Shown here: in pieces, positions 1 to 6,948 of the stretch
Layout: each line of letters opens with the position of its first letter
Numbering within the stretch: position 1 is the first letter of the stretch
NCBI GenBank assembly: GCA_029856525.1
Contig: JAHQXC010000040.1
Span: forward strand, 1 to 11,704
Source of the DNA: Candidatus Odinarchaeia archaeon
GTDB lineage: Archaea; Asgardarchaeota; Odinarchaeia; Odinarchaeales; Odinarchaeaceae
Length of the DNA stretch: 11,704 nt
Direction: 5' to 3'
Translations under genes and position numbers: made by a program
The notes under the pieces: generated by a model
Told to the model about the DNA's origin: nothing
Seen by the model: the letters and a program-made list of their open reading frames with translations, nothing else
Database searches by the model: none

Positions 1-804
1 GCTTTTAGTATCTTCAAGCTGACGGGTTAATTCTTCAATTCTCTCCCTGTCAGAGTTTAATTGACCCCCTCTTATTTTCTCATACTCCTGGTTCAGTTTA
101 TCTTGAAGCTCCTTTATTTTTTGTTTTAATAACATGTTTTCAGATTTAAGAGAGTTGAGCTCGCTTGTGCTAAATACGATCTCACCGCGTTCACTTTCAC
201 TTAGACTCTCTTGCAGCCGCTTCTGTAAACTGTCACGCTCCTCAGCTAACTTCGACGCCTCTCCTTGAATCTCGAAGATTCTTTTCTCAGATAGGTCTAA
301 CTGCCTTGTAAGATCGGCGACTTTAGTTTCAGCTTCGGAGAGGCGGTTTTTAATATTCTTTAGTAATGGGAGTATACTCTTCTCGAAGCGTTGCGATTCA
401 GCTAAGCGATTTTTTAAAAAGTAGATTTCTTCAATCACTAAATTATAGTCTTCGAGTTTTCTAAATAATTGTATGAATTCGTTTGAAACACTGATTATCT
501 GATTAATTCTATCAGAGCTTATATTATAGATTTCCTCGCTTCTTATATTTTGATCCTCTATGATATTAGAGTAATCTAGTAACAGTGCTTCCAGTCTTTC
601 AAGAGAGTTAAGTAATTTATCACCGTCTCTGACACTACTCTTCTCAATATGAGCTTTTAGCATTTTACAAAGCGCTATTAATTGCTTTATACATCCGCTT
701 AAAAAATTTCGATACTCCTCTAAATCTATCATAAATAGTTTAGATGTAAGTATGGAAAGCAGCGCCTTCAAACGGCCTATCAGAGATTCCGTAGATTGAT
801 CCAT
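1..804 (-). CDS. Hypothetical alpha-helical/coiled-coil protein, 3'-truncated by the window edge (at least 268 aa)
   Basis: Manual translation from the ATG at 804-802 (MDQSTESLIGRLKALLSIL...) gave no stop down to base 1. The later half is E/K/L/Q-rich heptad-like (LSEAETKVADLTRQLDLSEKRIFEIQGEASKLAEERDSLQKRLQE). Probably absent from the ORF track because its stop lies outside the window. No family recognised. Confidence 0.85.
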   Translation of the reverse strand, partial: MDQSTESLIGRLKALLSILTSKLFMIDLEEYRNFLSGCIKQLIALCKMLKAHIEKSSVRDGDKLLNSLERLEALLLDYSNIIEDQNIRSEEIYNISSDRINQIISVSNEFIQLFRKLEDYNLVIEEIYFLKNRLAESQRFEKSILPLLKNIKNRLSEAETKVADLTRQLDLSEKRIFEIQGEASKLAEERDSLQKRLQESLSESERGEIVFSTSELNSLKSENMLLKQKIKELQDKLNQEYEKIRGGQLNSDRERIEELTRQLEDTKS

Positions 805-2417: not shown

Positions 2418-4001
2418 ATGGAAAATCTTCGAGTCGAAGTAAACAATATATTGCAGACTATCTCTAAAAAATTTTATTTAAAACCAAACCTTGAGATAAG
2501 AGAGGTATTACTCTCAGAAGAAGAGTTGAATAATCAAGTTTATTTCGACGGTTCTAGACTTTACATAGCGCGTTCAGCTATAAACCAGCCTTTATTTAAA
2601 GAGTTTTTAATAAAAGAGGCGGCTAAAGCATTCCTACCTTTAATTTTATTTAACGTAGAGCGGGCGCAGGATTTCTGCTATTATATAACTTATAAGTTGA
2701 CTAAAAATAAAGGGGCGTGGTTAAAAATATGGGAGGCTAATTCACCTCCGATTTATACTAGAAATTTAACTTATACACCTCAATACGATCTCGCTCAAAT
2801 AGATAATATCACGGATGGTAAAGCTGTTAAAACGTTTCTCTCATTTTTTAATGAAGCTCAAAAATATAGGGATAAACTGAGTTTAGAAGAGTATTTACAA
2901 TTATATAATCTCGTTCAAAAAGAAATCTCTCCTAGAGTGTCAGAATTAGATTATAAGGTACTAACAGAGGTATATACTCAGGGTGCGCTAGACTATAATA
3001 TAATTTCTAAGAACACCGGGTTAACTGTTAAAAAAGTTAAGAGAACAGTATCTAGACTTAAAAAACATTTATGGCTTAATTTTTTAGCTTTCCCAAATTG
3101 GAGTAAAATAGGATTAGAATATATAATAGTTCTAGTTAACCCTGTTAACAATCAGATATTAAATCTTGTAGACGCGTTGATTAAACCATATGTAAGGATT
3201 ATCCACCAGCTTGGAGGAGGGGAGGCGACGAAAATATTATTTATCTGCACCCCTCCTTTTGGAACAATTTACGTGATTGAAAAATATCTTCGCATACTTG
3301 AATATGAAGGTTTGATTAAAGATTACATTATAATGAGACCTGGAAAGTTTATTCATTCAACGAACCTCGCTCTTTTAAATAATAAATCTTGGAAGTGGAG
3401 TTTAGAAGACGTTGATAAATCTCACCCGGCTTCTAGAATATATGAAATGGAGTTTTCCTATCATTCTCAAGCTCAGCGATTACTAGATAGAGAGGATATT
3501 ATAGTTTTATTTGAACTAGATCAAGCTGGTGGTCTTGAAGCTAATCTTACTAAGATTTCTAAAAAAACAGGGTTATCTAGAGCTAGAATTATTAAATCTA
3601 TTAAAAAGCTAGCAGCAGGAAACTATTATATAAGTTACCCTGTAATCTATCCTCCTTTACTTAAACTTTCTGAGACGCTGTTTACTATTGTTAAAACGAG
3701 CCGAGATGAGTGTAGAAGGGATCTTAAACAATTATTCTTGAAATTTCCGGACAACTATGTCTTCGAGTTAGATGATGGATTAGTGGCGGTTAGCCACGTC
3801 GCCTGGGAGTTGACTAATATTTTCAATATGGTTAGAAGACTTGTTTTGAATCTTGAAGGTGTTGAAGATTTGAAGCTGTTTTTCGAGTACGCTCACTATG
3901 GTAGTATGCCTCCCCCCTCCGAGTTTTTTAATGAAAAAGGCTGGGTTAACCCTGCTAAATTTTGGAGTAGACTTCCCGATGCTCAACCTCTCATAGGCTG
4001 A
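2418..4001 (+). CDS. Tandem Lrp/AsnC-like winged-helix regulator with an extra N-terminal domain (527 aa)
   Basis: Two Lrp-like HTH segments: SELDYKVLTEVYTQGALDYNIISKNTGLTVKKVKRTVSRL followed by PNWSKIGL (like the Lrp linker), and DREDIIVLFELDQAGGLEANLTKISKKTGLSRARIIKSIKKL. Each is followed by a beta/alpha RAM-like region. The first ~170 aa are unassigned. Confidence 0.7.
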   Translation: MENLRVEVNNILQTISKKFYLKPNLEIREVLLSEEELNNQVYFDGSRLYIARSAINQPLFKEFLIKEAAKAFLPLILFNVERAQDFCYYITYKLTKNKGAWLKIWEANSPPIYTRNLTYTPQYDLAQIDNITDGKAVKTFLSFFNEAQKYRDKLSLEEYLQLYNLVQKEISPRVSELDYKVLTEVYTQGALDYNIISKNTGLTVKKVKRTVSRLKKHLWLNFLAFPNWSKIGLEYIIVLVNPVNNQILNLVDALIKPYVRIIHQLGGGEATKILFICTPPFGTIYVIEKYLRILEYEGLIKDYIIMRPGKFIHSTNLALLNNKSWKWSLEDVDKSHPASRIYEMEFSYHSQAQRLLDREDIIVLFELDQAGGLEANLTKISKKTGLSRARIIKSIKKLAAGNYYISYPVIYPPLLKLSETLFTIVKTSRDECRRDLKQLFLKFPDNYVFELDDGLVAVSHVAWELTNIFNMVRRLVLNLEGVEDLKLFFEYAHYGSMPPPSEFFNEKGWVNPAKFWSRLPDAQPLIG

Positions 4002-4534: not shown

Positions 4535-5098
4535 CTAAAAATTTTGGTGAAAGATCTTCTGTAAAAGCGTTTTAAAGCTTTCAACAATGTTAAAACCTGT
4601 AACAGCTACGCTTCTAATATAAACCGTGTTTTGATCGCTTTTCAAAATGGAGCGTAGCTCACTCTCAGAAACAACATCTTCTAAATCATACTTGTTTAAA
4701 GCGACTACAACAGGGATTTCCTTCTCAAATCGTTCACCGAAAAAAGATTCTAATTCACGCCAACTTCGAAGATTCTCGTCGATATATTTTCTCTGAGAGT
4801 CAGCTACAAATATTATTCCATCCACGTCTGAGAGCACTGTTAACCGTGTTTCAGCATAATAGTCTTGACCGGTTGCAGACCAGACTTCAACGTTGATAAC
4901 CCAGTCTCTCTGGTTAATAGAGATAGGGGCGTAGTCGAAAAATAATGTTCGACCTGTAGATGTCTCTAATGATCGGATAGATTGATTCGGAGCGATTTTC
5001 TCGAATAACTTTTTTAGCGAAGTTGTTTTACCGCTCATCGCCGGACCGTAGTAGACTATCTTAACAGCTATACGCTTATTCTTCCAATCAACCAGCAT
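4535..5098 (-). CDS. mglA: MglA-family small GTPase
   Basis: KIVYYGPAMSGKTT (G1), TGRTLFFDY (MglA switch I with intrinsic Arg), WSATGQ (G3-equivalent; TVPGQ in Myxococcus MglA), DGIIFVADS, NKYD (G4), SVAVTG (G5). Close match to the MglA signature. Confidence 0.9.
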   Translation of the reverse strand: MLVDWKNKRIAVKIVYYGPAMSGKTTSLKKLFEKIAPNQSIRSLETSTGRTLFFDYAPISINQRDWVINVEVWSATGQDYYAETRLTVLSDVDGIIFVADSQRKYIDENLRSWRELESFFGERFEKEIPVVVALNKYDLEDVVSESELRSILKSDQNTVYIRSVAVTGFNIVESFKTLLQKIFHQNF

Positions 5099-5101
5099 CT
5101 T

Positions 5102-6007
5102 CTACCCCCATAACCCTTCTATAATATCGCCTAGAGCGGAGAGCGCCCCCCTTCTCACATATTTATGGAAGTCTAACCCCCACTCCGCATATATAAAATC
5201 AAGTATTCGCGAAGCGGAAGCCCCATTATATTTAATCGAGTTTAATAGTGTTTTCTCTGAGATAAACCAGTCAATGTTAAATTCGTTTATAAGATCAATT
5301 CGAGTCAACAGGTAAAGAGCACGCCTACAGGCGTTAACGAAAAAGAATACCTGAGAGTTAAATAAGCTTTCTTTAAGCCCCTCCTCTTCAGATTCGAAAT
5401 TTAGAAGAGTTGAAGAGAAGATAGAGCTGATATTTGATCCGTAAATTTTATTTTTGAGAACTCGTTTAATCCGTTCTATAGAAGATTTTGATTCCGCTTC
5501 CACACTTTCTATTAAGTTTTTTTCAAACGATACGTCGAGTTGACTGTGCTGACGGTTGGAGGTTAATTCGACACTGCTATCAGAGTTTTTGAAAAATTTA
5601 ACAGTTAATATCACATGGTTATAGGCTTCAACATAGTTTAACAATTGTTGAAAATTCTTCTCATCCCCGCTTGTTGAGATCACCCATCCGCGGAAATCGT
5701 CGAAGCCTTCAAAGATATGTTTAACAGTATTAGAGAGAGCTCTGAAAACGGATCTAGGGCAGTCTATATCCATGCGCTCTAATTCAATAATACCATGATA
5801 TTCTTTAAGAGTCGCGAAATCGACTAGAAATACTCTCTCATACCTGTTAGGTATAAGCCTCATCATTAAGCTATTAAGATCATCGGCGGCCTTCTCGTCA
5901 TCGCTGTAAATAATTATCGGAATCCTATCTAACAGGCTTCTTAAAATTAAGGGAGCGGTGTCTCTTTTAACATATCCTCCAAGAGTTAAACTGAAGCGGC
6001 TCATCAT
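5102..6007 (-). CDS. Hypothetical protein with a DENN-core-like N-terminal motif (301 aa)
   Basis: Uninterrupted ORF coupled to both neighbours (ATGA overlap upstream, 3-nt gap downstream). SD GGTGAG sits next to the start, so the second ATG at 6004 may be used. LILRSLLDRIPIIIYSDDEKAADDLNSLMMRLIP resembles the cDENN pattern by eye only. The ORF is confident; the domain call is not. Confidence 0.6.
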   Translation of the reverse strand: MMSRFSLTLGGYVKRDTAPLILRSLLDRIPIIIYSDDEKAADDLNSLMMRLIPNRYERVFLVDFATLKEYHGIIELERMDIDCPRSVFRALSNTVKHIFEGFDDFRGWVISTSGDEKNFQQLLNYVEAYNHVILTVKFFKNSDSSVELTSNRQHSQLDVSFEKNLIESVEAESKSSIERIKRVLKNKIYGSNISSIFSSTLLNFESEEEGLKESLFNSQVFFFVNACRRALYLLTRIDLINEFNIDWFISEKTLLNSIKYNGASASRILDFIYAEWGLDFHKYVRRGALSALGDIIEGLWG

Positions 6008-6948
6008 CTCACCGTTAAAGTTTCAAAGATTTCACCGAATTCTAAGCTGGGGATAACGGGTTTAACGCTCTCCAATTTTTCAAGCAACTCGTTAAATGAT
6101 TTCACGTAGGATGAAAATAGAAGGCGGAGTAAACCTATCCTAGCATTGCTCTGTTTCTCAACTTCAGCGTATAATATCGCGTTTTTTAAACCTTGAATAA
6201 AAATAAATTCATTACTGTACTCGCCTATAATACTCTCCACAAAAGACCTTTTCAATATCCAGAATACTCTTCTAGCAGTATCGTAAAGAGAAAACGCCAT
6301 CGCGCACAGCGACTTGTCGAAGCGGCTATCAGATCTATCATATGAGGAAATCACGTAACCGTTATTTAAACTAATAAATGAGCGTGTGATTTCAGGTATA
6401 GATTTAACTATTGCTAAAAGCGAGTTATTAATTTCATCGGCAAACGATTCATCTAAAATAAAATTATATTTAGGAAGTGTTAAAGTCTGCTCGCCTTGAT
6501 ATTTGAGACTGAAATTTCTTAAAATATCCTCTACTTCCTCAGGTGTGAAGTTGATTAAAGGAGGTTTTAGAGCTTGAAAATTTGTTATCAACAGATTTTT
6601 GATCGCGTTTAAACTATTTTTAGCTTCAACATAAATCGCTCCTATATTAGTTTTCTTTTGAGCTGTAAGCGTTATAAAATATTCCTCTAACATAGGGAGA
6701 GGTGATAAAAAAATTTTAGCGGAGGTCCCCTCAATTAAAATATTGTTCAGTTTATTCGAAGAAAGCTGGTTTACAGTGGAATAAATAGCTGAAGCCGCTG
6801 AGCTGACACTGAACACTTCTCTTTTACTAAGCCAAACACCCGCGCTTGTAATAGGATACCCGTCTTTTTGAGTTAAAACAACGTTTTCAACACCTGGAAT
6901 ATTTTTAATATTTTGCAGGTGAAGTTTTAATAAATCATCGTTATACAT
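6004..6948 (-). CDS. Tandem roadblock/LC7 (MglB/LAMTOR2-like) domain protein
   Basis: N-terminal roadblock: LQNIKNIPGVENVVLTQKDGYPI...SSAASAI...LNNILIEGTSAKIFLSPL...NIGAIYVEAKNSLNAI. C-terminal roadblock: IVKSIPEITRSFISLNNGYVISS...LCAMAFSL...VESIIGEYSNEFIFIQGL...RIGLLRLL. Adjacent to an MglA-type GTPase. Confidence 0.85.
   Translation of the reverse strand: MYNDDLLKLHLQNIKNIPGVENVVLTQKDGYPITSAGVWLSKREVFSVSSAASAIYSTVNQLSSNKLNNILIEGTSAKIFLSPLPMLEEYFITLTAQKKTNIGAIYVEAKNSLNAIKNLLITNFQALKPPLINFTPEEVEDILRNFSLKYQGEQTLTLPKYNFILDESFADEINNSLLAIVKSIPEITRSFISLNNGYVISSYDRSDSRFDKSLCAMAFSLYDTARRVFWILKRSFVESIIGEYSNEFIFIQGLKNAILYAEVEKQSNARIGLLRLLFSSYVKSFNELLEKLESVKPVIPSLEFGEIFETLTVR

Follow-up and report, generated by a model that had tools for sequence, protein, structure and literature searches.

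A predicted stand-alone DENN-like protein encoded between a tandem-Roadblock protein and an MglA-type GTPase in an Odinarchaeial operon

Eukaryotic cells use DENN modules, such as those of folliculin and C9orf72-SMCR8, to control Rab, Arf and Rag GTPases in membrane traffic and nutrient signalling, and these modules were long held to be eukaryote-specific. Does an archaeal operon that encodes a small GTPase and a Roadblock protein also encode such a module, and, if it does, what might a DENN protein do there without a longin domain in its own chain? The locus lies in a stretch of 11,704 nucleotides from an Odinarchaeial genome (the window), in which the original prediction, made from sequence alone, had read a short motif of an uncharacterised 301-residue protein as a minimal DENN core whose longin-like partner might be supplied in trans by the adjacent Roadblock protein.

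Reading frame and predicted fold of the 301-residue protein

The protein and the parts discussed below are as follows.

5102..6007, minus strand: 301-residue stand-alone DENN-like protein, predicted cDENN plus dDENN, without a longin domain
5843..5953, minus strand: reported motif, residues 19-55 (translation; AlphaFold2 secondary structure; most conserved block of the family)
5558..5965, minus strand: predicted cDENN-like alpha/beta domain, about residues 15-150, six strands alternating with helices (DSSP of the model)
5108..5530, minus strand: predicted dDENN-like all-helical domain, about residues 160-300, closing with a conserved GDxxxxLWG tail (model helices)

The letters quoted for the motif, PLILRSLLDRIPIIIYSDDEKAADDLNSLMMRLIPNR, are the exact minus-strand translation of positions 5953..5843 and correspond to residues 19-55 of the open reading frame 6007..5102. 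An AlphaFold2 model computed with a 45-sequence alignment of the family (A1) reached a pLDDT of 92.8 and a pTM of 0.89. In it, residues 15-150 form an alpha/beta domain and residues 160-300 an all-helical one, with helices at 160-188, 195-201, 205-242, 251-257, 265-276 and 288-300. Within the alpha/beta domain, the motif covers the end of the first helix (15-26), strand 1 (31-35), the next helix (38-49) and the L51-I52-P53-N54-R55 loop that runs into strand 2 (56-60), a course that agrees with the pattern of helix, hydrophobic strand ending in S, helix and L-x-P by which the motif had been recognised. The accompanying claim that no longin (u-DENN) segment comes before the motif is likewise borne out: the reading frame begins only 18 residues upstream of it, the frame further upstream is closed, and all of the roughly 300-residue homologues align from their own N-termini. 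The protein therefore lacks the tripartite layout with an N-terminal longin in the same chain; a search for longer fused forms of the family (546-2000 residues) gave none, which adds a little weight to this picture.

The core of DENN domains has been described as having a minimal P-loop topology (PMC3521125). Consistent with this description, the model fits a three-layered alpha/beta sandwich of beta-alpha units in a minimal P-loop-like topology, followed directly by an all-alpha region (160-300) that would correspond to the d-DENN. Nucleotide- and Mg-binding residues are absent, with [AG]xxxxGK[ST] found in 0/45 aligned members, and the N-terminal loop of the family is not conserved in A1.

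Foldseek searches against the PDB returned nothing at E <= 0.001 and interleaved P-loop ATPases with DENND1B and FLCN; the assignment of the fold consequently rests on VIA-align, a Foldseek-independent search of 48,161 chains, which gave the following scores.

Folliculin C-terminal domain (3v42_B): 11.7 (rmsd 3.9, 191/199 residues)
FLCN in 6nzd: 11.7
DENND10: 11.4
GspE ATPase: 10.6
SMCR8: 10.2
C9orf72: 10.1
DENND1A: 10.0

DENND1B is also among the best structural matches. Matches to DENN proteins span both halves of the model, with alignments that reach model residues 274-286 and cover 96% of the FLCN chain. P-loop ATPases match the alpha/beta half, and most of their matches stop at about residue 150-163; in whole-protein comparison with ATPases, the matches of GspE, FlaI and the pilus-machine model extend to 222-265. 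Because the DENN core itself has P-loop topology (PMC3521125), matches to ATPases are expected even for a true DENN domain. On the evidence of the model, the 301-residue protein very probably has a DENN fold. The check that had been proposed, structure prediction followed by structure searches, thus returned a cDENN-type alpha/beta sandwich with a helical dDENN-type region, matched by folliculin, DENND10 and SMCR8, and supports a stand-alone DENN core; the adverse outcome, an unrelated P-loop or Rossmann fold, did not occur, and Walker A is absent in 45/45 members.

Sequence signals, conservation and distribution of the family

Searches with the 301-residue protein against Pfam and NCBIfam found nothing meaningful (the sole Pfam match was Glyco_trans_4_2, at 0.071), and neither the protein by itself nor the 45-sequence profile retrieved anything from PDB sequences except spurious ferritin- or kinesin-like matches, with E values of at least 0.02. 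The Folliculin_C and DENN Pfam models had no match in the source genome at E <= 10, and the DENN model (PF02141) had none in 201 Asgard genomes at E <= 0.001, such that neither the protein nor its relatives match a curated DENN-type model significantly. Below significance, Folliculin_C is the only Pfam family matched more than twice among the 45 relatives (three members, best 4.8e-4; the matches range from 4.8e-4 to 0.09 and lie under 21 bits against a cut-off of 27 bits), and the DENN model makes a sub-threshold match to one of the 45 at 0.093. In relatives with visible coordinates, positions 6-55 of the Folliculin_C profile align to residues 5-54, and positions 90-132 of the DENN profile to residues 9-51, that is, to the reported motif; this register agrees with the structural alignment, which sets FLCN residue 343/344 against model residue 1. 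Neighbours in the ESM-Atlas, where scores below 0.9 count as leads only, are nearly all of DENN type and include no ATPase, whether the query is the full chain or just residues 1-155 (C9orf72-like, Folliculin_C/SMCR8_C, SPA, Avl9, DENND11 and Folliculin families, plus one Njmu-R1 cluster). Evidence of this kind for a DENN relationship is weak yet coherent. Taken together with the predicted structure, it makes homology of the 301-residue protein to DENN modules highly likely, and we infer common descent with these modules rather than analogy of fold.

An exhaustive phmmer search recovered 72 cluster representatives of the family, of which those of full length are mostly about 270-325 residues long and the remainder look like fragments. 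The closest homologues share 77-78% identity with the Odinarchaeial protein; among them, the closest that is named (77%) comes from Ca. Odinarchaeum yellowstonii LCB_4, where it is annotated as hypothetical. The most conserved 15-residue window of A1 is residues 19-33. P30 and R55 are invariant among its 45 members and R28 is conserved in 98%; E77, R85, W108, E162, E207 and F223 are, like R28, conserved in at least 90%. At position 35, G stands in place of S in 71% of members, and only 60% retain P53. As the motif is the best-conserved block of the family, it is a real, selected feature, more than a chance resemblance. In the AlphaFold2 model, R28/P30, R55, R85 and W108 stand at the N-terminal ends of strands 1-4. 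This places them along a single sheet edge, on the side opposite to the nucleotide-binding face of P-loop NTPases, and they may form a binding patch.

Searching with the A1 profile placed the family in 110/201 sampled Asgard genomes, mostly as one full-length copy each; a few of the profile's matches are weak, N-terminal-only matches to paralogues. By lineage, the distribution is all-or-none, with, for example, 42/43 in family f6, 37/41 in f9, 15/19 in f12 and 0/21 in f4.

Two features of individual family members deserve mention. The GDxxxxLWG tail (residues 293-301; window 5102-5128, minus strand; D294 in 78% of members, W300 in 76%) is modelled at lower confidence and may serve in docking to a partner. 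One homologue of 400 residues (P0025) was considered as a fused form and set aside, since its extra length is an internal insertion of about 100 residues between the alpha/beta and helical domains.

The Roadblock and GTPase partners

The genes on either side of the DENN-like gene encode the following proteins.

6004..6948, minus strand: 314-residue protein with two tandem Roadblock/LC7 domains (Pfam Robl_LC7, 6.6e-8; AF2 model)
4535..5098, minus strand: 187-residue MglA-family small GTPase (phmmer against the PDB)

The Roadblock domains of the 314-residue protein occupy residues 1-122 (6583-6948) and 167-293 (6070-6450). The Robl_LC7 match falls in the N-terminal domain, and the AF2 model (pLDDT 81) displays two complete alpha-beta-beta-alpha-beta-beta-beta-alpha units. 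Foldseek matches to this protein comprise an Asgard Roadblock, MglB, LAMTOR2/3 and Mon1-Ccz1 (longin repeats), and its profile matches MglB at 0.003; judging from the model, it would be a covalent MglB-like pseudo-dimer.

For the 187-residue GTPase, phmmer against the PDB gave full-length matches to MglA of M. xanthus (1.6e-29) and T. thermophilus (8e-28), as compared with 1.2e-10 for Thor-Rab and 1.8e-7 for Rab7. Residues 3-180 align to MglA 4-185 and carry GRTLFFD, WSATGQ and NKYD. The Arg of GRTLFFD aligns with the switch I Arg of MglA, whose intrinsic arginine finger is the catalytic Arg53 according to the literature, and in WSATGQ a Ser replaces the Asp of Ras-type proteins, a position at which MglA has Thr. 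Full-length similarity, the switch I Arg, Ser/Thr before GQ and NKxD, the marks of the MglA family, are thus all present; among 36 operon GTPases of other loci, GRTLFFD is found in 29/36 and [ST]ATGQ in 34/36. By sequence, the operon GTPase is clearly MglA-type, not Rab-like.

Elsewhere in the source genome there is a second MglA-like GTPase (G000:C96:6575-7099, plus strand; 35% identity, E 2.3e-26). Further small GTPases, more distantly related, number about eight in this genome, which also has nine matches to Roadblock domains, including a cluster of four on contig C51. A second tandem-Roadblock paralogue occurs in family f12 (G011:C2:22723-23595, G022:C139:8502-9386, G078:C182:4127-5011 and others; E ~1e-86 to the tandem-Roadblock profile A3). 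Four f12 genomes without a DENN-like match have this paralogue as their sole A3 match; in several genomes that also hold an operon copy, it is found on a different contig.

The three genes follow one another on the minus strand as 6948..6004 (314 residues), 6007..5102 (301 residues) and 5098..4535 (187 residues). The stop codon of the Roadblock gene overlaps the ATG of the DENN-like gene (ATGA at 6004-6007), and the GTPase gene begins 3 nt past the stop codon of the latter. Adjacent, co-oriented genes of this kind recur: of 38 loci, drawn from nine Asgard families, 36 keep the order Roadblock, DENN-like, GTPase, and stop codons often overlap the start codons that follow. In the two exceptions the copy is relocated (G137) or divergent (G182). 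The tandem-Roadblock and DENN-like profiles match in the same families (f1, f5, f6, f8, f9, f12, f15, f23 and f26), and neither matched in the other 18 families sampled, save for weak N-terminal-only A1 matches in two f21 genomes. The three genes are co-transcribed and probably translationally coupled, and the genomic evidence that they form a functional unit is strong. Gene order and co-distribution therefore lend indirect support to the idea of a Roadblock partner acting in trans, as do the two tandem domains of the partner itself, and suggest that the DENN-like and Roadblock proteins would associate physically.

Around the trio lie commonplace archaeal genes, for an A/V-type ATPase subunit, a class V aminotransferase, endonuclease V, Orc1/Cdc6 and an ArsR-type HTH protein. 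A 527-residue protein (2418-4001, plus strand) has weak winged-helix/HTH matches to HTH_24 (residues 176-216) and HTH_36 (369-399), and no other family match. At the window start (1-804, minus strand) lie the N-terminal 268 residues of a protein whose gene runs past the window, with only weak, coiled-coil-type Pfam matches.

Liu et al. (bioRxiv 10.1101/2020.10.19.343400; Nature 2021) predicted an Asgard operon in which a small GTPase and a DENN-domain protein are encoded together with a protein of the Roadblock superfamily. They describe it as 'conserved in most Asgard archaea', propose it as a folliculin-like GEF module, and report that some Heimdallarchaea carry FLCN-like longin-DENN proteins (bioRxiv 10.1101/2020.10.19.343400). 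Because the present trio fits this description, from which the identity of the gene families is judged, we take it to be of a kind already known. The accounts differ over two of the proteins: the GTPase, Rab-like in the preprint, is MglA-type here, and the Roadblock protein, LAMTOR1-like in the preprint, is here a tandem of two Roadblock domains. To the earlier prediction, our analysis adds independent structure-prediction support, in the form of a high-confidence fold with quantified matches, as well as the MglA identity of the GTPase that is the presumed client, the finding that the partner is a tandem of Roadblock domains, and the co-distribution of the DENN-like and tandem-Roadblock families by lineage. 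A literature search found no biochemical work on the Roadblock/GTPase/DENN module.

A possible split DENN module and competing readings

Comparison with characterised systems shows where the Asgard trio departs from each. The C-terminal DENN domain of folliculin (PDB 3V42; FLCN in 6NZD, 8DHB and 6ULG) has only ~10% sequence identity to the 301-residue protein; moreover, FLCN carries an N-terminal longin with a catalytic Arg and pairs with FNIP, whereas the Asgard protein has no longin and its partner gene encodes a Roadblock protein. The Rab35 GEFs DENND1A and DENND1B (PDB 6EKK, 3TW8) are tripartite single chains (longin, DENN, dDENN) that act on Rab; here, by contrast, two separate genes would encode the module, the proposed client is MglA-type, and PF02141 makes no significant match. 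C9orf72-SMCR8 and DENND10 (PDB 6LT0, 7O2W, 7MGE, 8P0V) are eukaryotic longin-DENN proteins of GAP or Commander complexes, for which no sequence-level significance was found in comparison with the 301-residue protein. From the MglA-MglB switch of Myxococcus and Thermus come the closest likenesses for the other two subunits: the GTPase aligns with MglA over its full length and keeps GRTLFFD and [ST]ATGQ, and the Roadblock domains resemble MglB, although MglB is a homodimer of single-domain chains and the two Roadblock domains are here fused in one. We know of no bacterial MglAB operon that contains a DENN-like gene.

The reading that we favour, and consider probable, is that the 301-residue protein is a member of the DENN superfamily in a GTPase/Roadblock operon, forming part of a split module in which a GEF role is the most probable one. 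The Roadblock protein would supply a GTPase-docking platform in trans, taking the part that the longin plays in eukaryotic DENN modules, and the DENN-like subunit would bind beside it and contact the GTPase; in the DENND1B-Rab35 complex, all three DENN subdomains contact the GTPase (PMC3521125). Between them, the two proteins would determine the nucleotide state in which the MglA-like switch is held. MglB dimers are described in the literature as GAPs that work via MglA's own Arg and Gln. Since both the switch I Arg of MglA type and the Gln are retained in the operon GTPase, the Roadblock pseudo-dimer could act as a GAP in the manner of MglB, and the DENN-like subunit would then most probably serve in nucleotide exchange, as a GEF of DENND1-like kind. 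The DENN-like protein is thus likely to be a regulatory subunit of the switch and probably its exchange factor, with complex formation and GEF activity both read from context and homology.

A DENN homologue need not be a GEF, and we consider it unlikely, if well short of negligible, that the protein is instead a scaffold or co-GAP that braces or dimerises the Roadblock platform, or that tunes an MglB-like GAP in the manner of RomY. Several points speak for such a role: the closest structural match of the protein is the C-terminal domain of folliculin and not DENND1, Folliculin_C is the only Pfam model to match the family repeatedly, FLCN, SMCR8 and C9orf72 are members of GAP complexes (PMC12290439) with the DENN domains of FLCN-FNIP2 and C9orf72-SMCR8 playing this bracing or dimerising part in longin-domain assemblies of that type, and the partner is MglB-like, MglB being a GAP. 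Operon linkage and co-distribution, for their part, indicate a functional link without its direction, and would also suit a downstream effector or localisation factor that binds the GTP form of the MglA-like GTPase and takes no part in its nucleotide cycle. RomRX, long called an MglA GEF and re-interpreted as an effector (PMC13408092, abstract), serves as a warning in this regard. Such an effector is nonetheless improbable, given that the characterised DENN modules cited here are GEFs or parts of GAP complexes (PMC12290439, PMC3521125) and that translational coupling as tight as this, to the genes of both partners, suggests a regulatory complex of fixed stoichiometry.

Little probability likewise attaches to the reading in which the protein is unrelated to DENN and is a degenerate, nucleotide-free P-loop domain of PilT/VirB11/RecA-like kind with a helical appendage, sharing topology only. 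The resemblance to secretion ATPases (PilT/VirB11/GspE/FlaI) is at the level of fold only: most ATPase matches end near 150, whereas DENN matches span both domains, and matches to ATPases are in any case what a true DENN domain should produce (PMC3521125). Walker A (GxxxxGK[ST]) occurs in 0/45 members; the recurring weak sequence matches and nearly all language-model neighbours are DENN-type, with no ATPase among them; the sequence and structure registers agree; and the genomic context is a GTPase and a Roadblock protein, with no secretion system.

Returning to the favoured split module, it is possible, though we advance this tentatively, that the operon keeps a pre-fusion state of the eukaryotic DENN module, with DENN plus d-DENN and a Roadblock/longin-type platform as separate chains that assemble on an MglA-type GTPase. 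If this were so, DENN regulators would first have evolved to serve the prokaryotic MglA-MglB switch, whether in nucleotide exchange or in co-regulation, and fusion of DENN to longin, with redirection to Rab, Arf and Rag GTPases, would have come only later. The Asgard trio could show how the eukaryotic longin-DENN fusion came about, and, as a compact, thermophile-derived three-gene system, would be an unusually tractable model for DENN action on a GTPase.

Other candidate DENN-type proteins were seen among Asgard genomes. A separate family of 307-339 residues (L023:1171-2094, plus; L026:1093-2016, minus; L024:1000-1980, plus; L025:229-1248, minus; L027:1249-2259, minus; L028:943-1953, plus) would have a folliculin-like longin-DENN layout: its 307-residue members (L023, L026) have a longin-like N-terminus (Fuz_longin_1, 0.003-0.013) and then a Folliculin_C-like motif (3e-4 to 2e-3), and those of 326-339 residues have only the latter motif, after a longer N-terminal region. 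This family occurs in lineages f2 and f4, both without the stand-alone DENN-like family, and its genes do not adjoin Roadblock or GTPase genes; in an hhalign comparison, the two families reach only 60% probability, over the 49-column motif. In a complete genome congeneric with the source (L045:2747-3631, plus; G001:C1), residues 98-156 of a 294-residue paralogue match the A1 motif (hhalign 64%, E 6.6e-5) after a weak longin-like N-terminus. No clear counterpart was found in the source genome, where hhalign against the candidate L049 gave nothing. A PAC2-family gene follows this paralogue, as it does the f2 protein in L023. Two further proteins, of 397 and 365 residues (L046:2670-3863, minus; L047:2641-3738, minus), are matched by the A1 profile at the motif only and have weak Pfam matches to DENN (0.026) or C9orf72-like (0.0099) models, making them candidate DENN-type paralogues.
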